Origin: a virus
Lineage: Duplodnaviria; Caudoviricetes
Virus record (IMG/VR): IMGVR_UViG_3300002220_006617
Location: 32,001 to 96,000 of that record
Reading direction: 5' to 3' (one strand)
DNA: 64,000 nt
In this document: positions 11,373-42,086 of the stretch, one piece after another
Layout: every line of letters begins with the position of its first letter
Numbering within the stretch: the first letter of the stretch is position 1
Program-made: the position numbers and the translations under genes
The notes under the pieces: generated by a model
The model's input: the letters and a program-made list of their open reading frames with translations, nothing else
What the model was told of the DNA's origin: nothing
Database searches by the model: none

Positions 11373-11445
11373 GGACGGTTTCGTCCCCGATCGGGTAAAC
11401 CCCTCGCCTGATGGCGAGGGGAATACTCCGTCGGGAACGACATCC
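11373..11445 (+). repeat. Long TGAT-loop hairpin H2
   Basis: CCCCTCGCC-TGAT-GGCGAGGGG, flanked by CGGGTA/TACTCCG and TCGTCCCCGA/TCGGGAACGA. Confidence 0.8.
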
Positions 11446-11489
11446 AATTCCCGTCTTTAAATTTTTTAATATCAGCAAAGGAATGAATC

Positions 11490-11843
11490 ATGACAGACGA
11501 CGACAACACCCAGAACCCTACCCAGGGTACCGATATGAACAGCCCCCAGACCACCGAGCCCATCACCGAGGTTAACGCCAGCGGAGAGGACAACCAGACC
11601 GGCCCGAACAGCGAGCCCGTCGAGTACGTTGCATCTGTCAAGGGTGTAGACAAGGTATTTGACCACGCGATCACCCTCCAGGACCTCATCGACTTCACCG
11701 AGGAGCAGGGTGTTAAGAAGTTCTCGGCATACGCGCCCGAGACTGCAGAGTTCCCGAACGGCCAGAAACTCAAGGCCCGCATGTTCCCCTACGCCGGGGA
11801 CGTCGAGCTCCGTGAACTCATGGAGCCCAAGACCTTCAACTAA
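11490..11843 (+). CDS. Putative ubiquitin-like (beta-grasp) small protein
   Basis: Acidic disordered N-terminus then beta-beta-alpha-beta-beta pattern; directly upstream of ThiF; ends PKTFN, no Gly-Gly. Confidence 0.5.
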   Translation: MTDDDNTQNPTQGTDMNSPQTTEPITEVNASGEDNQTGPNSEPVEYVASVKGVDKVFDHAITLQDLIDFTEEQGVKKFSAYAPETAEFPNGQKLKARMFPYAGDVELRELMEPKTFN

Positions 11844-11870
11844 TTTTTTAAAATAACGGATTGAACAACC

Positions 11871-12533
11871 ATGCCACCCACTACCCCAACTGCAGACTCC
11901 CTCTATGCCCGCCAGGACCTCATCGGTCAGGTAAAACCCGTTGAATCAGCCATAGTCATCGGAACCGGTGGCGTAGGTTACTGGGTAGCCCTTGCCCTTG
12001 CAATGACCGGCACCAAAAAACTGTTTCTCATCGACTTCGATAACGTGGAAGAGTCCAACCGGTCCCGCATCCCGTTCAAGAAAAGCGACGTAGGCAAACC
12101 CAAGATCATGGCACTCGCCAACTTCATCAACGAGATCCGGCACGGCCACTGTGAAGTAGTCCCACTCGAGATGCGCTGTGAAAAGGTCCCGCCCATGTTC
12201 CGGAACGATCCCGCCTGGAAAACCGCTGCGGTCTACGATTGCCGTGACAACACTGACGAACTCCCGGACTTCTACAATAAATGCAGGATCACCGGCGGTT
12301 ACGACGGGCTCAAAATGAGTCTCCACCGGAACCCGAACAACGAGGATATCTTCGGTAACGGACCGACCCGGTATACCATCACCCCCTCGTATGCAATCAT
12401 GCCCATGTTACTGGCTGCCATGATCGTCGGATACTCAACCATCCCATCAATGCAGAAAGAGACGGACCTCGACAGCACGTTCACCTTCCAGGAACTCGTC
12501 AACCACAAGATCTTCAACGAGGCTGCATCGTGA
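11871..12533 (+). CDS. ThiF/MoeB/E1-family adenylyltransferase
   Basis: YARQ, IGTGGVG, DFDNVEESNRSR, DVGKPK, DCRD. Confidence 0.9.
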   Translation: MPPTTPTADSLYARQDLIGQVKPVESAIVIGTGGVGYWVALALAMTGTKKLFLIDFDNVEESNRSRIPFKKSDVGKPKIMALANFINEIRHGHCEVVPLEMRCEKVPPMFRNDPAWKTAAVYDCRDNTDELPDFYNKCRITGGYDGLKMSLHRNPNNEDIFGNGPTRYTITPSYAIMPMLLAAMIVGYSTIPSMQKETDLDSTFTFQELVNHKIFNEAAS

Positions 12534-13024
12534 GCGGTTACTACATGACATTCCTTGTTTATTCCGAGGAAAACACCTATCAAGGCGCCATAAAATCTGC
12601 CAAAGATGAGATCGATGCCATGTACGCCGAGGGTTCACTAGGCCCTGATGATCACGGATACATTGACCCAATCGAAAAGATAATCCCGGCAACTAAAACT
12701 GAACCGTTCAGAAACGCAATATCCGAACTCAACCTGAAACGTGCCACAGCCTACCAGTACTACGTCGAGAAAGCCGTAGAGATTACAAATAAAGCCGGAC
12801 ACACACTCGCAAACTTACCCCTCGAAGAACAGGAACCCAGCAAATATAACGACATGTTCGGCCATTACATGAAACTTGCCGGACTGATCCACGGCCGGGA
12901 TTTCACTGTTCAGGGAATCCTCTACGATACGGAAACCTTCGAATGCGGTATCACCCAGGACCGGCTCAACGAACTCCTTAAACATCCTAATGGTTTCTAT
13001 CTGGTCCCCATGGTCGTGGGTTGA
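12530..13024 (+). CDS. Hypothetical protein within Ubl cluster
   Basis: Coupled ORF. Confidence 0.6.
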   Translation: MSGYYMTFLVYSEENTYQGAIKSAKDEIDAMYAEGSLGPDDHGYIDPIEKIIPATKTEPFRNAISELNLKRATAYQYYVEKAVEITNKAGHTLANLPLEEQEPSKYNDMFGHYMKLAGLIHGRDFTVQGILYDTETFECGITQDRLNELLKHPNGFYLVPMVVG

Positions 13025-13479
13025 TGATCCCACCATCAATCTGCATCATTTCCTGCGGTAAAGCCAAATACTGGGACGCTCATCCAGATGACGCAACCAA
13101 CACCGTAAAACCTGCCCGTGACGTTTACACCGGTCCACTGTTCAAAAAATGTGCAGAACTTGCTGAACTGACGCATCCATACAACTGGTACATCCTCTCA
13201 GACAAATACGGACTGATAACACCGGACCAGTTAATCCAGAACTACGACGTATCCCCAGAAGTCATCAAAGACAACAACCTGTTCCGGTTACTCGTAGAGT
13301 TCCAGGCTCTTTCTCTCAACATTCTCAAAACCGAACGTGTCGTAGCACCTGTCGGTAAAATCCACGAATCTGTCATCAAATCTGTTTTCACAGATTCAGG
13401 ATACATAAACCCCCTGGCTGGCATGTCCCAGGGCAAACGCATGCAAACACTCACCAGACTCATCAAGGACAAACCATGA
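13021..13479 (+). CDS. DUF6884-like protein
   Basis: IISCGKAK...ARDVYTGPLF...WYILSDKYGLI...NYD. Confidence 0.7.
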   Translation: MMIPPSICIISCGKAKYWDAHPDDATNTVKPARDVYTGPLFKKCAELAELTHPYNWYILSDKYGLITPDQLIQNYDVSPEVIKDNNLFRLLVEFQALSLNILKTERVVAPVGKIHESVIKSVFTDSGYINPLAGMSQGKRMQTLTRLIKDKP

Positions 13480-14198
13480 AATCCCATACTACAAAACCCG
13501 GCCTCCGGCTCCGCGCACCTGACATTAACGACGACGACGACGTATTTGATTCCGGCATTGTCCTCATCAAATCCCATGACCTTTACATCGGCACTGAACT
13601 CCTGGCATATTGCGACGCAATCCAGCAGAAATTTCCCCGGCTGGAATGGAGCATCATGCTCAAAGGCAAATGGATCCCCGAAGGATATTCAGTCAGCAAA
13701 TCTTTTGCAATCCCAGACCAGGAAGTTGCCGGCGCTGAAGTCAACCTGAACGACCGTGAAGTTGCTGCCCTGACCGCCCAGGGGTACAACACGATCATCC
13801 ACAGTCACCCGTTTCCTTCAAGTTCATTCAGCTCATCCGACATGGAAACCCTGACATCTACGGCTGAGTGTTCCATCCTCTACAGCGAAGGTGCATTCAC
13901 CACCGCCACGATCGGCATCCGTGTAGCAACAGGACTCAAACTCCTGATCATGCCCGATATCAAGATGATCCATGACATTCACATGGACCTCCCGGACAAC
14001 ATCACGTCCAAGATCAAAACCCGGTCCTTCGATCATTTCCACGGGTGCGTATCCGTCACGAACCGCCCACGGTCCGTCAGCGACGCAGTCAGCAGAACCA
14101 AAAAAAACGGCGAAACAAATCTGCTGCTCGACGAGGCCACAACAACCACCGTACATGAAACTTTCGAACTCTACGACAACCTCCTTTCAGAGTTTTAA
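13476..14198 (+). CDS. JAB/MPN metalloprotease (prokaryotic deubiquitinase-like)
   Basis: EWS...IPDQEV...IHSHP...FSSSD (E-HxH-SxxD). Confidence 0.85.
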   Translation: MKSHTTKPGLRLRAPDINDDDDVFDSGIVLIKSHDLYIGTELLAYCDAIQQKFPRLEWSIMLKGKWIPEGYSVSKSFAIPDQEVAGAEVNLNDREVAALTAQGYNTIIHSHPFPSSSFSSSDMETLTSTAECSILYSEGAFTTATIGIRVATGLKLLIMPDIKMIHDIHMDLPDNITSKIKTRSFDHFHGCVSVTNRPRSVSDAVSRTKKNGETNLLLDEATTTTVHETFELYDNLLSEF

Positions 14199-14200
14199 CC

Positions 14201-15949
14201 ATGTTCACCTTTGAGATCTGCAAAGATTCCGATAACAGTTACATGCTGAACCCTATAGGAGATACCGATAGCGATCCAGCATTCAACCGTGCATCCATGA
14301 AATTGCCCTCCATGGACGACTGGAGACGGTTCCTCATTTATTGTACAGAAAACGAGTTCTGTTGCATCCCTCTCAAGGACAAAAAAGCATTACTCCGGTC
14401 AAAATACGGCAAGAAATCCATATCGTTTGTGCTTGAACCTGACGAAGAGATCAATGCACTTGTACCTCATGACGAACTGGTTTCATTACTCCCGTTATTT
14501 GCCATATGGCTCCAGTCACTCAACACCGCCAGGTACCTCATTAACCAGCGAAACAAAGGACATGACCTCACCAGGATCACCAGTGCAACCGAACTTATTG
14601 AATCCAAAGATCTGGTCGTCTCGCTCCTCAAGAAAACTCCCGACTGTTCCATGAAACTCGTGGTCAACGGAACCCCGTTCGTCATGGACATGACCAACCA
14701 GAGCTGCGACACTGACTACCCCATCACCGATCTGTCTGCCTGTAAAAACGAGGATATGCAGGGAATCTACAACACGTTTGCCAACCTGGTTCAACTTCTC
14801 CGTGAAAACGCCGAGACCCGGATCAGCGTACTCGAAAAAAAACAGAACGAAATTGAACAAACCCTCCGGACCAAAATCTTCTCGGAAGTCATGCAAAAAC
14901 TTGCAACCTTCGTATCGCATGGCTGGACGTTCAACAAAGCCGGATATTTCACCTACACCCATCAAATCAACTGCACCCACCTAGTAATCTCGGCATCATA
15001 CCTTACCGGTGAAAGTGTTATAGATACAGACGACCTGCTCTCTCTTGAACTCCCTGAAAATCTCCGAGCAAAATTCCAGATCCCCGGTATCATAACCCCC
15101 TATAAAGACAAAATTGAAGGGGTAACCATCGTCAGCGATTCCAAAAAACCCGCTTACCACCCTCATTACGACAGCCAATACGGCTTATGTATCGGAGACT
15201 TTGCCAAAAGGCCGTTTGACGAAATTATCAATCTGCCCCAGGCACTCACCCAGATCAATTATAACAGTATGTGGGGCGGTAGAGCAAATGAAGAACTCAA
15301 TCGCTGGATAAAAACCATCAAGGAAATGCCCAAAAACAAACTCGATCAGTTTGTCCGGAAAGCCAGAAATGAAGACAGCGACGTCTTCTGCAAAGACCGG
15401 GAATACGATGAAGAACCCATCCCTGCGGTCCCAGAACGGGCGACCATAACAATTCTCAGTCCGGACGGCGCATCTGCCAGAGCAACCGTAACTGCTGCAG
15501 AGATCATCAACCCGGGAATGGCCAACCCACAGACAATAGTTGCAGCAACTCACACGAGCCCCCAGGTAATCATTCCGCCAGAATTGGTCATACCCCGGGC
15601 AAGAACGCCCAATATCATGGAAGCCTGGACTAGCAACCCCGACGTAGAACAGATCGGTCAAGACATGCAGATCCTAACAGACATCATCAACGAACACAAT
15701 GATCAATTCAGGCGCGACTATGACGGGGCAATCGAGTTCGATCAAGACGGTAACCGTAGTCGGATCAACGCTGGACTACCCCCGATAAACCTTGCAGAAG
15801 AACGAAGCCATCCGGCAACAACCATACGGATAATCCCGCTTGGGGGGGACACAGACGTATTCGAAACACCGGCTCCAGTCGCCCACAACCCGATCCCGGC
15901 CCATGTTGAAGACTATGAGAACGACGATGAAGTGTTCGGCAGCCACTAA
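14201..15949 (+). CDS. Large protein with coiled coil and putative prokaryotic E2-like domain
   Basis: YHPHYDSQYGLCIGD resembles the E2 HPN/H...C active site; followed by INYNSMWG. Confidence 0.55.
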   Translation: MFTFEICKDSDNSYMLNPIGDTDSDPAFNRASMKLPSMDDWRRFLIYCTENEFCCIPLKDKKALLRSKYGKKSISFVLEPDEEINALVPHDELVSLLPLFAIWLQSLNTARYLINQRNKGHDLTRITSATELIESKDLVVSLLKKTPDCSMKLVVNGTPFVMDMTNQSCDTDYPITDLSACKNEDMQGIYNTFANLVQLLRENAETRISVLEKKQNEIEQTLRTKIFSEVMQKLATFVSHGWTFNKAGYFTYTHQINCTHLVISASYLTGESVIDTDDLLSLELPENLRAKFQIPGIITPYKDKIEGVTIVSDSKKPAYHPHYDSQYGLCIGDFAKRPFDEIINLPQALTQINYNSMWGGRANEELNRWIKTIKEMPKNKLDQFVRKARNEDSDVFCKDREYDEEPIPAVPERATITILSPDGASARATVTAAEIINPGMANPQTIVAATHTSPQVIIPPELVIPRARTPNIMEAWTSNPDVEQIGQDMQILTDIINEHNDQFRRDYDGAIEFDQDGNRSRINAGLPPINLAEERSHPATTIRIIPLGGDTDVFETPAPVAHNPIPAHVEDYENDDEVFGSH

Positions 15950-29186: not shown

Positions 29187-29615
29187 TCCTCTACCTGATC
29201 CAACTGACAATACTCTCGGTCCTGGCTGTCATAACCATATCCATGATCGGATTCCTTGTTGGCATGGCTGCCTGCTGGCTTGACCGAATCTGTTCAGAAA
29301 CATATTCCTGGTGGTCGTAATGCTCAACGAATGCCAGAAAGAAGCAGTCATCGCAACCATCAAGGATGTAATGTGGGGGATACTATTGGCAATCGGGGCG
29401 ATCCTCTGTTTCCTTTTCGTAATGATTGTGCTCCATGCCGTCGGGATGATGATAAGTAAATGGTTTCCGCCGGCAACAATCGAAATTCCCGGCCGTATCG
29501 TGATATTCGGAATTGTAGGCGTAATAATCCTTTACGCAGGGGTGGTGGCAATAAGAAGACAGTATACCCGGAACTTCGAACACTGCCGGTGGATGCAGGA
29601 ACAGGGAAAATCGCC

Positions 29616-30341
29616 ATGACCGACATCTGCAACCTCGGCGGATTCATATCCCTGAGCACCCTGGACTGGCCCGGCCGATCAACATCAGTTATCTTTCTCC
29701 GCGGCTGTCCCAACCGGTGTCCCGACTGCCACAACAAACATCTGGCACAGGAAGGCCCAACCGTCCCGATGACTGAAGTCTTCGAACTCCTTCAACTCTC
29801 AGTCCCATTCGTCGGCGGTGTCGTAGTTTCCGGCGGTGAACCCACCAAACGCCTTGAAGAACTGACCCGTATCCTCGAGTACGCTCACGATATCGGGCTA
29901 CAAACCCGGGTCCAGACCAGCGGGATCTACCCGGCCAACATTGAAAAACTTATCGACCGGCAACTCGTTGACTCAATTGCCCTCGACTTCAAAGTCGAAC
30001 TCGGCCGGATAGACACGATCCTCCCGAAAAATATACCCTATTCCGCGGTCCCGCAAACTCTCAAAATCTGCGAGATAGCCCGGGCCTCCGGAACACTGGA
30101 TGATTTTGAAGTGGTCCACACCATTTTCCCGTATTACGGTCACGACCGACAACTATCCCACATCTCAAACTACGTCGATAGAAAAACCAAATTCATACTC
30201 AACCAAGGCCAACCGCTCAACCCGGTCCATTTACCATTAGATCACGACCGGCTCTGCGAACTCACATCCACGTTCGTACGGCAACCGCTCCGATACGTCA
30301 GATCAAAAGATAAAGGACAGGTGTTTGTCAAAAATGTGTAA
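29616..30341 (+). CDS. Radical SAM protein, anaerobic RNR-activating family
   Basis: STLDWPG, GCPNRCPDCHN, VVVSGGEPT. Confidence 0.85.
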   Translation: MTDICNLGGFISLSTLDWPGRSTSVIFLRGCPNRCPDCHNKHLAQEGPTVPMTEVFELLQLSVPFVGGVVVSGGEPTKRLEELTRILEYAHDIGLQTRVQTSGIYPANIEKLIDRQLVDSIALDFKVELGRIDTILPKNIPYSAVPQTLKICEIARASGTLDDFEVVHTIFPYYGHDRQLSHISNYVDRKTKFILNQGQPLNPVHLPLDHDRLCELTSTFVRQPLRYVRSKDKGQVFVKNV

Positions 30342-31647: not shown

Positions 31648-32334
31648 ATGACCGGAAAACTCATTGCATTTGAAGGAATTGACGGAAGCGGCAAAACCAG
31701 CATTCTGTCAAGACTCTGTAAAGAATACGGGGACAACCCGAAATACCAGTTCTCAAAAGAACCCACGCGGTCTAGTACTGGGGACGCCTGTTACCAAGCC
31801 ATCAACAGTGGCGACGAGATCCTCGCAGCCCTGGCATTTGCCGTCGATCACCGCTGGCACATCAAACACGTCATTGAACCTGCACTGGCCGCCGGCAACC
31901 ATATCTTCACAGACCGGTACATCCACAGCCACTATGCTTATCAGGTCCAGACACTCGAGAACGATCCCGATCTCGACGCCAAAAACACAAGCCCTATAGA
32001 CTGGCTCGACGCCATTTACACCCCGTTCACCCGGTACCCGGACTACGTGTTCTGGTTTGTCGTTGACCCTGACGAAGCAGTCAACCGCATCAAATCGTCC
32101 AGGACAAAAGACAAGATCGACCTGTATGAAACTGCAGAGTTCCTCAGTAAGGTCCACACAGAATATCAAAAACAACTGGTATCCAACCGCATCAACGCCG
32201 ACAACTCCGTGTACCTTGTCATCGACACCAACCTCAAAAACCTCGACGAAGTCTACCAGGACGTTGTCATGTGTCTTGAGACCCTGAACATATTGCCATC
32301 AGCAAACCCTAATACCCCGGACGCCCCAGTATAA
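31648..32334 (+). CDS. tmk: Thymidylate kinase
   Basis: AFEGIDGSGKTS, KEP, TDRY..S..AYQ, PD. Confidence 0.92.
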   Translation: MTGKLIAFEGIDGSGKTSILSRLCKEYGDNPKYQFSKEPTRSSTGDACYQAINSGDEILAALAFAVDHRWHIKHVIEPALAAGNHIFTDRYIHSHYAYQVQTLENDPDLDAKNTSPIDWLDAIYTPFTRYPDYVFWFVVDPDEAVNRIKSSRTKDKIDLYETAEFLSKVHTEYQKQLVSNRINADNSVYLVIDTNLKNLDEVYQDVVMCLETLNILPSANPNTPDAPV

Positions 32335-41228: not shown

Positions 41229-42086
41229 ATGACAGCAATCCTCCCGAAAGTCAAGATCTGGATTGACCAGCCATTCAACAAGAAACTCGACCAGTCCCGG
41301 CATTCCGTTCTGAAATGGTACGGAACATCTAATGGGCAACCCGACGACAACGATTACTATTCCCCTCAAGAACACACTGCCATCTCATTCTCAGGCGGCA
41401 AAGATTCAACCGTTGTCCTGAGTCTAGTCCGGGACTACGTTGCACAGTTCGCGCTTGAAGACAACGATCTTCGTCAAGCCAAAAAACACATGGCCAAAGT
41501 CAACGTCGTCTACGGCAACACCGGTGTCGAATATCCCGAGACTACCAAATTCGTACATATGCTCAGGGACCTCTGGGGATTCAACCTCATCGAACTCAAA
41601 CCGGACCGGACCTTCTGGGACTGTGTCGATGAAACCGGCCTACCGGGCGGCAAAGACAAACGACCCAGCCGGAACGGCGATAAAACAGATATCTGCTGTT
41701 ACTACCTCAAGGAAAAACCCATGCTAAAATGCATCAAAGACCGCGAGTTAAAAGTAGTCTATCTGGGAGTCACTGCACTCGAAAGCCGACAACGCATGAT
41801 CAAAGCATCAACGCACGGCGACTGTTACATCGCCCAGAAATGGGGTGTCCGGAAAGTATTGCCGATCCTCTACTGGTCAGAAAAAGAGGTCTGGTCCTAC
41901 ATTCACAAAAACAACATCCCGTTCAACCCGGTCTACCGCCGTAAATACGTCAAACGATGCGGATGCATGCCCTGCACGGCTCACAAAAACTGGAAAGAAG
42001 AAATCTGCAACGAGAAACCCAGCCTCTGTGCCAAAATCTTATCGATCATGGGCCAGAGTCAACTCCTCGAAACCCCGGTGATCTGA
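41229..42086 (+). CDS. PAPS reductase family protein
   Basis: SFSGGKDS, NTGVEYPET, CC..LK.KP, ES..R, RCGCMPC. Confidence 0.88.
   Translation: MTAILPKVKIWIDQPFNKKLDQSRHSVLKWYGTSNGQPDDNDYYSPQEHTAISFSGGKDSTVVLSLVRDYVAQFALEDNDLRQAKKHMAKVNVVYGNTGVEYPETTKFVHMLRDLWGFNLIELKPDRTFWDCVDETGLPGGKDKRPSRNGDKTDICCYYLKEKPMLKCIKDRELKVVYLGVTALESRQRMIKASTHGDCYIAQKWGVRKVLPILYWSEKEVWSYIHKNNIPFNPVYRRKYVKRCGCMPCTAHKNWKEEICNEKPSLCAKILSIMGQSQLLETPVI

Follow-up and report, generated by a model that had tools for sequence, protein, structure and literature searches.

Does a virus that carries a ubiquitin-like protein (Ubl) also carry the enzymes for attaching it, and by what chemistry could a tag without the usual C-terminal glycine be activated? 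We addressed this question in a window of 64,000 nucleotides (positions 32,001 to 96,000 of IMG/VR record IMGVR_UViG_3300002220_006617). Here we show that this large tailed virus of archaea encodes its own ubiquitin-style tagging kit, comprising a tag, an activating enzyme, a carrier enzyme and a trimming protease. The lysine-ended clade to which the tag belongs is new, and so is the pairing of a cysteine-less E1 with a cysteine-bearing E2.

Results and Discussion

Four linked gene families form a viral module

A check of the open reading frames of the window returned the Ubl, ThiF/E1, JAB and E2-like genes at the coordinates of the initial annotation, all on the plus strand, where neighbouring genes of the cluster abut or share 4 bases (Table 1). 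The description of the four genes as a single run is correct as to their common orientation but not as to their contiguity, for two unrelated genes are inserted between ThiF and JAB. No homologue of the first inserted product occurs in any fetched related locus; the gene for the second is likewise absent from those loci and lies outside the conserved set. The TGAT hairpin reported ahead of the cluster is indeed present with a perfect 9-bp stem, and the box that follows it is a candidate archaeal promoter.

Table 1. Positions of the cluster, its upstream elements and its main protein features within the window
Feature	Position	Strand	Length or residues	Evidence or remark
Hairpin with TGAT loop, 5' of the cluster	11400..11422	.	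9-bp stem	sequence read
A/T-rich TATA-like box	11457..11472	+	18-33 nt 5' of Ubl start codon	sequence read
Pro-Ubl	11490..11843	+	117 aa	AF2, Foldseek, VIA, neighbouring homologues
Pro-Ubl, beta-grasp domain	11604-11831	+	residues 39-114
Pro-Ubl, Lys114 codon	11829-11831	+	residue 114
Pro-Ubl, variable tail TFN	11832-11840	+
Minimal E1-like adenylating enzyme, ThiF family	11871..12533	+	220 aa	Pfam ThiF and profile matches
Inserted protein	12530..13024	+	164 aa	weak sub-threshold DUF1318 match only
Inserted DUF6884 protein	13021..13479	+	152 aa	Pfam DUF6884, 4.2e-17
JAB/JAMM metallopeptidase	13476..14198	+	240 aa	invariant motif, profile match to AMSH/Sst2
E2-like protein	14201..15949	+	582 aa	AF2, Foldseek, VIA, motif conservation
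E2-like protein, UBC-like core	14918-15355	+	~residues 240-385
E2-like protein, H320-P-H322 codons	15158-15166	+	residues 320-322
E2-like protein, Cys330 codon	15188-15190	+	residue 330

The four families are linked on ~18 other distinct contigs of viral or metagenomic origin, so their arrangement in the window is not due to chance; at least three gene orders occur among the related contigs. This linkage in relatives bears out the initial view of a genuine, co-conserved Ubl, E1, JAB and E2-like set residing on a virus. On two contigs of only ~5 kb each (L014 and L015) no JAB was found, though the Ubl there has a 2-residue tail. Replication genes accompany the module, with Cdc6 encoded in the window and MCM in L003 and L018. 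As a family, these conjugation modules are absent as such from Pfam, NCBIfam, PHROGs and PADLOC, and our literature search found no paper describing virus-borne Ubl/E1/E2/JAB cassettes.

The genomic setting bears on what the module is for. The same biochemistry might serve defence, as a Bil-like immunity or superinfection-exclusion system whose tag would go onto the structural proteins of rival viruses and not onto those of the host. The prokaryotic Ubl/E1/E2/JAB systems characterised so far (Bil, type II CBASS) are all antiviral and located on mobile elements, and in Bil the tag is attached to the tail protein of a phage (PMC11601596); moreover, the neighbouring DUF6884 protein matches the PADLOC candidate defence family PDC-M57A (3e-16) and, weakly, DpdC. 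However, the module sits among early and replication genes in many apparently lytic tailed-virus genomes, a search of well-assembled cellular genomes did not find the four-gene set, and no defence-type regulator was seen. We consider a defensive function unlikely. Since it lies among early and replication genes, the module probably serves to modify proteins of the host or of the virus at an early stage of infection.

Conservation of the tag ends at a lysine

Behind a low-complexity stretch of 38 N-terminal residues, the pro-Ubl contains one further domain, which AF2 modelled with a pLDDT of 88.1 and a beta-beta-alpha-beta-beta topology. Every Foldseek match of this model has the ubiquitin fold (ubiquitin, SUMO, ISG15 and UBL domains, probability 0.9-0.99), and a VIA search, which is independent of Foldseek, placed the RAF RBD, SUMO, Fubi, ISG15 and the Bil Ubl 8tyz_B at the top (Z 5.6-7.3). 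The beta-grasp fold supposed for this candidate Ubl is thus confirmed. In related loci its homologues adjoin an E2-like or a ThiF gene, with tandem duplicates in two cases.

The absence of a C-terminal glycine, noted at the outset as unusual, is real. Instead of the glycine, usually Gly-Gly, at which Ubl modifiers normally end, directly or after processing, the protein has ..EPK followed by TFN, and conservation among homologues stops at Lys114 (..YN[AE][PA]K). The lysine is followed by a variable stretch of 0-31 residues or by a repeat of the Ubl in tandem: different homologues carry Q, NL, F, VQ, TA, SI, GRGY, a 31-aa extension or nothing, and in one relative (L022) the Ubl ends exactly at the lysine. 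In a sister clade the corresponding residues read ..YD.AG, with L032 ending exactly at the glycine, and hhalign of the lysine clade against this glycine-ended clade (E 3.5e-5) sets K opposite G. The position of Lys114 is taken by alanine in L017 and L029 and by glycine in L024, L031, L032 and L035, all of which keep the whole gene set.

This pattern disposes of an idea raised in the initial annotation, namely an Asn-dependent adenylation like that of MccB; the ThiF protein would then act on Asn117 through a succinimide intermediate or by attaching a nucleotide. MccB does rank fairly high when the ThiF protein is matched to the PDB, and the Ubl of the window does end in asparagine. Yet Asn117 lies in a tail that varies among homologues and is conserved in none of them, the residues past the lysine being different or missing, and MccB acts on short peptides rather than on beta-grasp proteins. 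With no conserved C-terminal asparagine in the alignment, we rejected peptide adenylation of the MccB type, which we regard as scarcely credible.

Lys114 might alternatively be an acceptor, the small protein then being a substrate or scaffold, or the set might work non-covalently with the JAB protein as a maturation protease only. Strict conservation of a lysine is what an acceptor site would lead one to expect, and we know of no E1 that adenylates, or otherwise uses, a C-terminal lysine. Against this reading, the relatives with alanine or glycine at the site have complete gene sets. In the Ubl model, K114 is placed 5 residues past beta-5, as is G76 in ubiquitin, so that the lysine, with its disposable tails, occupies the donor-end position of ubiquitin; in addition, the adenylation residues of the E1 are intact. 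An acceptor or non-covalent function therefore appears improbable to us.

The activating enzyme lacks a catalytic cysteine

The ThiF protein matches Pfam PF00899 with 65.3 bits (5.9e-18; cut-off 28.1), and a profile built from 18 sequences retrieved TcdA, MccB, ThiF, UBA5, MoeB, UBA3, Cap2 and BubCD from the PDB, the tRNA enzyme TcdA being the best sequence match. PADLOC E1-E2 models match its N-terminal core only. The residues invariant in the 18 homologues are G31xGGVG36, D55, D57, N63, R66, K78, D123, D126 and Y168; those that bind ATP and Mg are among them, and the protein thus has the Rossmann-type ATP-binding core of E1-like enzymes, with its GxGxxG motif, Arg finger, Lys and Mg-binding Asp.

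The enzyme has four cysteines, C94, C103, C124 and C138. Its 220 residues contain no CxxC, and hence no zinc site of the kind found in MoeB/ThiF/UBA5-type E1s, nor is there any cysteine after GGYDG to act as the crossover-loop nucleophile of a canonical E1. Among homologues only C124, inside the DxxD motif, is near-invariant (it is alanine in L032), and none is conserved outside that motif. The earlier claim of an E1 devoid of both the crossover cysteine and the zinc-binding CxxC pairs therefore stands. Tyr168 is assigned to the crossover loop solely by its position after GGYDG, the profile alignments to solved E1s ending at ~residue 140.

The JAB protein retains the intact E-HxH-SxxD signature first ascribed to it (E57...H109-S-H111-x7-S119-x2-D122), which is invariant in homologues. 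In the PDB its profile matched no proteins other than the JAMM deubiquitinases AMSH/Sst2, whose motifs aligned with its own (E 0.03), and its match to Pfam Prok-JAB (E=0.01, 16.1 bits) lies below the cut-off of 25 bits. The gene is linked to ThiF in most related loci. We propose this protein as the enzyme that trims the pro-Ubl and removes the conjugated tag.

The carrier has a UBC-like core with an invariant cysteine

The E2-like protein begins with an N-terminal domain (residues 1-185), followed by a long helix (residues 186-239), the UBC-like core and a low-complexity tail that closes with a conserved acidic-aromatic peptide (..DDEVFGSH). An AF2 model of residues 185-400 reached a pLDDT of 85.8, and E2s alone occupy the Foldseek matches listed for the core (ranks 1-49), at modest scores (E ~0.07, TM 0.3-0.47). 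VIA aligned the core with UbcH5, Ubc9 and Ubc7 over ~96 aa at an rmsd of ~3.2 A (Z 5.5-6.0), pairing model residues 51-188 with residues 11-133 of UbcH5. Because the structural scores are modest, we assign the core at the level of the UBC/E2 superfamily. Both the UBC-like fold anticipated for this protein and its embedding in a large polypeptide, behind a long helix, were thereby corroborated.

The active-site motif reads H320-P-H322-x7-C330 in the window, and its consensus among homologues is HP[HN]...C[IVL]G[DE], with the cysteine invariant in ~22 of them. Six relatives of the lysine clade have the canonical HPN-x7-C, and HPN also occurs in L020. The window protein itself gave no match to the Pfam E2 family (UQ_con, PF00179), whereas the active-site region of three relatives matched it below threshold (4.2e-4, 0.012 and 0.019; 20.4 bits in P0011, the best relative, 15.7 in L021 and 15.0 in L017, for a cut-off of 27).

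The presence of this protein weighs on another interpretation, in which the small protein would be a sulfur carrier like ThiS, MoaD or CysO that is adenylated by the ThiF protein and converted to a thiocarboxylate, with a JAB enzyme like Mec+ or QbsD, and would serve to thiolate tRNA, DNA or a cofactor. Bacterial sets of ThiF, beta-grasp and JAB proteins are established (Iyer et al. 2006, PMC1779556), TcdA, ThiF and MoeB are among the best matches of the ThiF profile, and elsewhere the window also encodes a member of the PAPS-reductase family and a radical-SAM protein. The PAPS-reductase gene, however, is 27 kb distant, and none of the genes linked to the module encodes a rhodanese, a cysteine desulfurase or a sulfurtransferase. 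Furthermore, an E2-like protein with an invariant cysteine is co-conserved with the set, the tag has no Gly-Gly end, and both the tandem repetition of the tag and its long extensions at the C-terminus better fit a conjugation precursor. A sulfur-carrier pathway is accordingly quite improbable.

A proposed route from lysine-ended tag to target

Taken together, the folds, motifs, gene linkage and C-terminal conservation point to a self-contained, virus-encoded Ubl conjugation module with a lysine-ended tag, a cysteine-less E1 and an E2-like carrier acting through Cys330, a reading to which we give a probability of roughly two in three. The 117-aa product would be a pro-tag from which the JAB protease cuts the variable residues past Lys114, and the same protease would split the tandem Ubl copies of relatives. 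The trimmed beta-grasp tag would bear a free C-terminal lysine carboxylate, which would be adenylated with ATP by the ThiF-type E1; like ThiF, MoeB and UBA5, this enzyme is probably a homodimer. Since a catalytic cysteine is missing from the E1, the acyl-adenylate would be attacked by Cys330 of the carrier either directly, a possible transfer already suggested by the initial annotation, or after Tyr168; by analogy with the Bub E1, the invariant tyrosine may attack first to form an oxyester. Against this route, no E1 is known to us that adenylates a C-terminal lysine, and a lysine acyl-adenylate might cyclise on its own epsilon-amine. With its extra N-terminal domain and acidic-aromatic C-terminal peptide, and with no E3 seen, the E2-like protein would select the target itself and move the tag onto a target lysine, and the JAB protease could undo the modification.

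Host E1 and JAMM enzymes specific for Gly-Gly would not recognise a tag that ends in lysine, and the viral system would therefore be insulated from the SAMP/Ubl machinery of the host. More tentatively, and with the odds somewhat against it, this chemistry may extend to a widespread viral tag clade that is activated and conjugated through its C-terminal lysine, from a cysteine-less E1 to a cysteine E2, possibly via a tyrosine oxyester. If so, this would constitute an orthogonal ubiquitin-type chemistry beyond the reach of host Gly-Gly-specific E1s and deubiquitinases, and archaeal viruses would use lysine-ended tagging to rewrite host or viral proteins.

Comparison with known systems

The bacterial anti-phage system Bil (classes 6C/6D of Iyer 2006) consists of BilA (Ubl), BilB (E2), BilC (JAB) and BilD (E1). 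Like Bil, the viral module keeps its Ubl as a separate protein, has no E3, and combines an E1 with a UBC-fold E2 bearing a presumed catalytic cysteine and with a JAB protein proposed to mature and remove the tag; the Bil Ubl was among the structural matches of the viral tag. In contrast, Bil uses a large E1 of IAD-AAD-CYS architecture, whose catalytic-cysteine domain is mobile (PMC11601596), whereas the viral E1 is a single adenylation domain; the Bil tag ends in glycine, the viral one in lysine; and Bil belongs to bacterial defence islands rather than to a virus of archaea. None of the Bil-type profiles of PADLOC, Pfam and NCBIfam matches the viral E2-like, JAB or Ubl proteins.

In Bub (6E/DUF6527), a cysteine-less E1 acts via an invariant crossover-loop tyrosine, and a JAB protein cleaves the pro-Ubl (Ye et al., PMC11601596). 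The viral module resembles Bub in its minimal, ThiF/UBA5-like E1 with a cysteine-less crossover loop and an invariant tyrosine, in its pro-Ubl, for which we propose the same kind of cleavage, and in Ubls with one to three beta-grasp domains. It differs in the E2, which in Bub is a Ser-His enzyme without cysteine while the viral cysteine is invariant next to HPN or HPH; in the separation of all its parts, which Bub fuses (Ubl-E2, JAB-E1 or E2-E1); and in the tag, that of Bub ending in glycine. The DUF6527 protease BubE, always present in Bub, has no counterpart among the six viral cluster proteins, and BubCD is no more than a distant sequence match to the viral ThiF protein (4e-12, N-terminal half). 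Type II CBASS Cap2/Cap3 is also distinct: Cap2 is a fused E2-E1 acting on a CD-NTase, while the viral E1 and E2-like proteins are separate, and no CD-NTase match was found among the six cluster proteins and ten other window proteins scanned.

Like the viral module, haloarchaeal sampylation (SAMP/UbaA/HvJAMM1) is archaeal and combines a tag of beta-grasp fold with an E1 of the ThiF type and a JAMM isopeptidase. Sampylation, however, employs no E2, and its Gly-Gly-ended tags double as sulfur carriers (PMC2948915), in contrast to the co-conserved E2-like enzyme and lysine-ended tag described here. Finally, auxiliary ThiF/MoeB genes have been noted in archaeal viruses and elements, including those of the RaFAH paper (PMC8276007), the Methanoperedens jumbo elements (PMC13444090) and the Nidhogg viruses of Helarchaeota (bioRxiv 10.1101/2021.07.29.454249). 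In those cases, too, a link of the ThiF gene to ubiquitin-type modification was proposed; but whereas those papers regard the viral ThiF as a lone gene that would rely on Ubl, ThiS or E2 proteins of the host, the virus described here also encodes the tag, the E2-like enzyme and the JAB protease.

A four-gene module kept together in viral relatives

When the sequence was read again, the open reading frames (ORFs) that the initial annotation had assembled into a ubiquitin-like conjugation cluster of Ubl, E1, JAB protease and E2-like protein were found at exactly the positions claimed. That observation is confirmed overall; as to its interpretation, the system is real and the proposed asparagine chemistry is wrong. 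Unmentioned there were two genes that separate ThiF from JAB, encoding an unknown 164-aa protein and a DUF6884 protein. Homologues of the former were absent from all the related loci. The latter lies outside the set conserved in relatives; its matches include PDC-M57A, a PADLOC candidate defence family, and, weakly, DpdC, from a 7-deazaguanine DNA-modification system.

Features of the module and its relatives (window positions unless a related locus is named)
Feature	Position	Description
Hairpin	11400-11422	Perfect 9-bp stem, TGAT loop; just upstream of module
A/T-rich box	11457-11472	Upstream of module
Tag (Ubl) gene	11490-11843	117 aa, + strand
ThiF (E1) gene	11871-12533	220 aa, + strand
164-aa ORF	12530-13024	Overlaps each neighbour by 4 bases; DUF1318 match sub-threshold
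DUF6884 gene	13021-13479	DUF6884 4.2e-17; PADLOC PDC-M57A 3e-16; weak DpdC match
JAB gene	13476-14198	240 aa, + strand
E2-like gene	14201-15949	582 aa, + strand
Terminal peptide of E2-like protein	15356-15946; L003, L005, L010, L013, L014, L018, L020, L024, L031, L032, L035	Acidic-hydrophobic-Trp/Phe
Tandem tag genes	L005:3667-4161; L018:929-1387	One ORF, two beta-grasp units plus short linker, each ending ..PK/..AK

Related loci were gathered by tracing JAB and E2-like homologues to their contigs and by scanning IMG/VR with a ThiF alignment, and all fetched loci were searched with purpose-built HMMs of the four families. The full set, a small tag gene with E2-like, ThiF and JAB genes, was present on eight contigs (L003, L005, L017, L018, L021, L022, L023, L026). 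The P0009 contig probably carries it too: in its called-gene table the E2-like gene and a Pfam ThiF gene are flanked by ORFs of 76 aa and 265 aa, the latter a putative JAB. Three of the four families occurred on L010, L012/13, L014/15, L025 and L048, and the same four-gene layout recurred in a more distant clade (L020, L024, L029, L031, L032, L035). Gene order was tag-E2-E1-JAB or tag-E1-E2-JAB, and tag-E1-x-x-JAB-E2 in the window. Through such rearrangements the four families have stayed together, which argues strongly that they act as a single functional unit. On L014/L015 no JAB is present in the 2.4 kb of small ORFs that come after the tag, E2-like and ThiF genes, although the tag tail runs two residues past its conserved lysine; the JAB may lie elsewhere or be dispensable.

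Searches of 50,697 deposited phage genomes with blastn and tblastn gave no match to the cluster or to the E2-like protein; ThiF found N-terminal matches only, in Flavobacterium phages. Viral-contig scans with a single protein, or with E2-like or JAB alignments, returned nothing or one contig already known, and it was the IMG/VR viral-contig scan with the ThiF alignment that widened the membership of the family. Genome-contig scans with JAB and ThiF alignments did not find the module in well-assembled cellular genomes: the JAB alignment had no match, and the ThiF alignment recovered mainly generic ThiF/MoeB proteins. Module parts appeared there only on L048 (CAYLKS010000104.1; E2-like, ThiF and JAB) and L049 (CALEVL010000030.1; ThiF and JAB), two short contigs that had been assigned to MAGs of bacteria ('uncultured bacterium', Ignavibacteria). 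Either these are mis-binned viral contigs or the family is present with bacterial hosts too. Inspection by eye revealed no short peptide tag shared by neighbouring small proteins.

A beta-grasp tag with a conserved lysine

Neither the tag nor the E2-like protein had a significant family match in Pfam, NCBIfam, PHROGs or PADLOC. An AlphaFold2 model of the tag, built from a 7-sequence alignment, was confident (pLDDT 88.1) and adopted a beta-beta-alpha-beta-beta order. With this model Foldseek retrieved the ubiquitin fold only (ubiquitin, SUMO, ISG15, ubiquilin, FAF1 UBL, FERM F1, RBD; probability 0.9-0.99, E ~0.01-0.05), and an aligner independent of Foldseek, VIA, matched it to RAF RBD, SUMO, Fubi, ISG15 and the bacterial Bil Ubl (Z 5.6-7.3). 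The tandem tags of L005 and L018 resemble polyubiquitin precursors.

Conservation of the tag in twelve contigs reaches ..YN[AE][PA]K (..ELMEPK in the window) and then stops. The conserved lysine is followed by TFN, Q, NL, F, VQ, TA, SI, GRGY, KG, a 13- or 31-residue extension, a repeat linker, or nothing; it is itself the last residue in L022, and in L017 a terminal alanine replaces it. Tags of the distant clade read ..YD.AG and continue for 0-6 residues, with L032 terminating at the glycine and L029 having alanine. A clade-versus-clade profile alignment (hhalign) sets the lysine opposite the glycine (E 3.5e-5, probability 72%), and in the model Lys114 sits five residues past the last strand. 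Taken together, the tail conservation pattern, this alignment and the model position put Lys114 where ubiquitin has its donor end; what follows it behaves as do the disposable tails of Ubl precursors. An asparagine-dependent, MccB-like adenylation had been suggested earlier from the terminal asparagine of the window protein; since that residue lies in the non-conserved tail after Lys114, the idea is removed.

An E1 with an invariant tyrosine, and a JAMM protease

The E1 is a clear member of the ThiF family (Pfam 5.9e-18, above cut-off). Its NCBIfam, PHROGs and PADLOC matches cover the N-terminal nucleotide-binding core only, and its PDB matches were UBA3, PaaA, TcdA, MccB, ThiF, UBA5 and MoeB. 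The protein has four cysteines, no CxxC, and no cysteine past the GGYDG strand. Residues for ATP, Mg and the Arg finger do not vary across 18 homologues, and the enzyme should therefore adenylate. The only conserved cysteine among them is C124, within the DxxD motif, and even this is alanine in L032. The sole invariant residue after GGYDG, in the region expected for the crossover loop, is Tyr168, after which comes a near-invariant Pro-Ser. In the Bub E1 a tyrosine is the only invariant crossover-loop residue, and the Ubl is held on it as an oxyester (Ubl~Tyr) before being handed on to the E2 (PMC11601596), which offers a suggestive parallel for Tyr168. Profile alignments of ThiF to solved E1s stop near residue 140, short of this tyrosine, so that its structural equivalence is putative.

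No acidic ThiF residue co-varied convincingly with the Lys or Gly end of the tag. In a ThiF tree the viral enzymes separated from three cellular outgroups (86/89), and the Gly/Ala-ended clade formed one strong group (100/99) nested in a grade of Lys-ended lineages that was itself unresolved. The lysine end is therefore old and widespread in the family, with no polarity between Lys and Gly given by the tree.

The JAB protein bears the full JAMM signature attributed to it. Taken alone, the sequence has weak Pfam support (Prok-JAB, E=0.01). With four homologues combined in a profile, the only PDB matches were the JAMM deubiquitinases Sst2/AMSH, with Glu, HxH and S..D aligned.

A divergent E2-like protein

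Relatives of the 582-aa protein are scarce. Two were found by a word-indexed search, two by a search with an alignment, and just nine when 1.8 billion representatives were searched exhaustively with HMMER; the family is thus rare or very divergent. Residues 185-400 were modelled by AlphaFold2 (pLDDT 85.8) as a 54-residue helix, a small sheet, a loop region and three helices. Foldseek ranks 1-49, as listed, were all ubiquitin, SUMO or NEDD8 E2 enzymes, with weak scores (E from 0.065, TM 0.3-0.47) that are partly due to the long helix. The VIA 'wide' search was dominated by coiled-coil matches to the same helix, and the Foldseek matches were re-aligned instead, giving Z 5.5-6.0 over ~96 residues, with model positions 51-188 on UbcH5 11-133. 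The family profile had no E2 match among PDB sequences.

A core of Pro-x ... Cys-x-Gly is invariant across the family. The window protein has HPH-x7-C330-I-G-D. In six relatives the motif is HPN-x7-C-[LVA]-G (HPNISGEGEVCLGD is one case), which we take to be close to the canonical UBC active site, HPNI...G.ICL. HPN is also present in L020, with a longer spacing (x12), and in the Gly-ended clade the motif reads HYH-x4-6-DC[WL]G. Pfam UQ_con matched three relatives below threshold, in the active-site region only, and in an ESM Atlas feature search, taken as a lead only, the nearest clusters having any Pfam family were Prok-E2_D (score 0.82-0.84). We conclude that the E2-like protein belongs to the UBC superfamily, as a divergent member, and has a predicted catalytic cysteine.

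Additional to the UBC-like core are an N-terminal domain of ~185 aa and, in the window protein and the homologue P0002, a 200-aa low-complexity C-terminal tail. At the very end of the E2-like proteins, within the last 2-6 residues, lies a conserved acidic-hydrophobic-Trp/Phe peptide (..EGDW, ..DVW, ..DIWGN, ..DLWTT, ..DDEVFGSH), which may be a docking motif for E1, JAB or the beta-grasp tag.

Viral setting

The source IMG/VR record, of which the window covers bases 32001-96000, is 127.7 kb long, without terminal repeats, and estimated to be 83% complete; window genes lie almost all on the + strand, and GC content is ~0.5. Among the window products are a Cdc6/Orc1 protein that has lid and winged-helix domains and a sheath-like protein (DUF3383); the source is therefore a large tailed archaeal virus. 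MCM genes were of no use in marking archaeal hosts, the family having matches in all control genomes. The Cdc6 gene lies 5 kb downstream of the module, and MCM genes are found near it on L003 and L018, which places the module in the early/replication part of these genomes. Apart from the module by position, a radical-SAM protein and a PAPS-reductase-family protein (window 29460-30341 and 41229-42086) are possible nucleic-acid modification candidates.

Proposed mechanism and comparison with known systems

From the folds, motifs, linkage and conservation pattern we infer the following pathway. JAB would cut the pro-tag back to Lys114, whose carboxylate a ThiF dimer would adenylate. The tag would then pass, directly or via Tyr168, to Cys330 of the E2-like protein, which, with its own extra domains and without an E3 partner, would put it on target lysines; JAB could remove it again. 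Such a tag would be orthogonal to the Gly-Gly-specific enzymes of the host.

To our knowledge, the ubiquitin-type conjugation systems characterised to date in prokaryotes are weapons of bacteria against phages (Bil, CBASS, probably Bub). The window locus and roughly 18 relatives indicate that viruses bear complete kits of this type of their own. If lysine is truly the C-terminal residue through which the tag is used, this breaks the rule of a small Gly(-Gly) end for E1s, and the module would make for a compact, naturally orthogonal tagging system (~75 + 220 + 240 + 400 aa), relevant to how ubiquitin signalling evolved near the archaeal-eukaryotic boundary and of interest as a protein-ligation tool.

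In the literature searched, from which most subscription journals are missing, we found no description of a virus-encoded set of Ubl, E2 and JAB; papers on archaeal viruses and elements report lone ThiF genes only, with host partners assumed (PMC8276007; bioRxiv 10.1101/2021.07.29.454249; PMC13444090). Like Bil, the module has separate Ubl, E2, JAB and E1 and no E3, but it lacks the multi-domain E1 with a Cys domain that defines Bil, and it matched none of the profile libraries. It shares a Cys-less minimal E1 with Bub, and differs from Bub in its Cys E2 and in lacking both a DUF6527 protease and gene fusions. A Cap2-type fusion, as in CBASS, was rejected as its identity. To these systems the window locus adds a lysine-ended clade whose Gly-ended sister serves as an internal control, the pairing of a Cys E2 with an E1 that lacks a catalytic Cys and has an invariant Tyr, and ties, at the level of sequence, between the E2-like family and canonical UBC.
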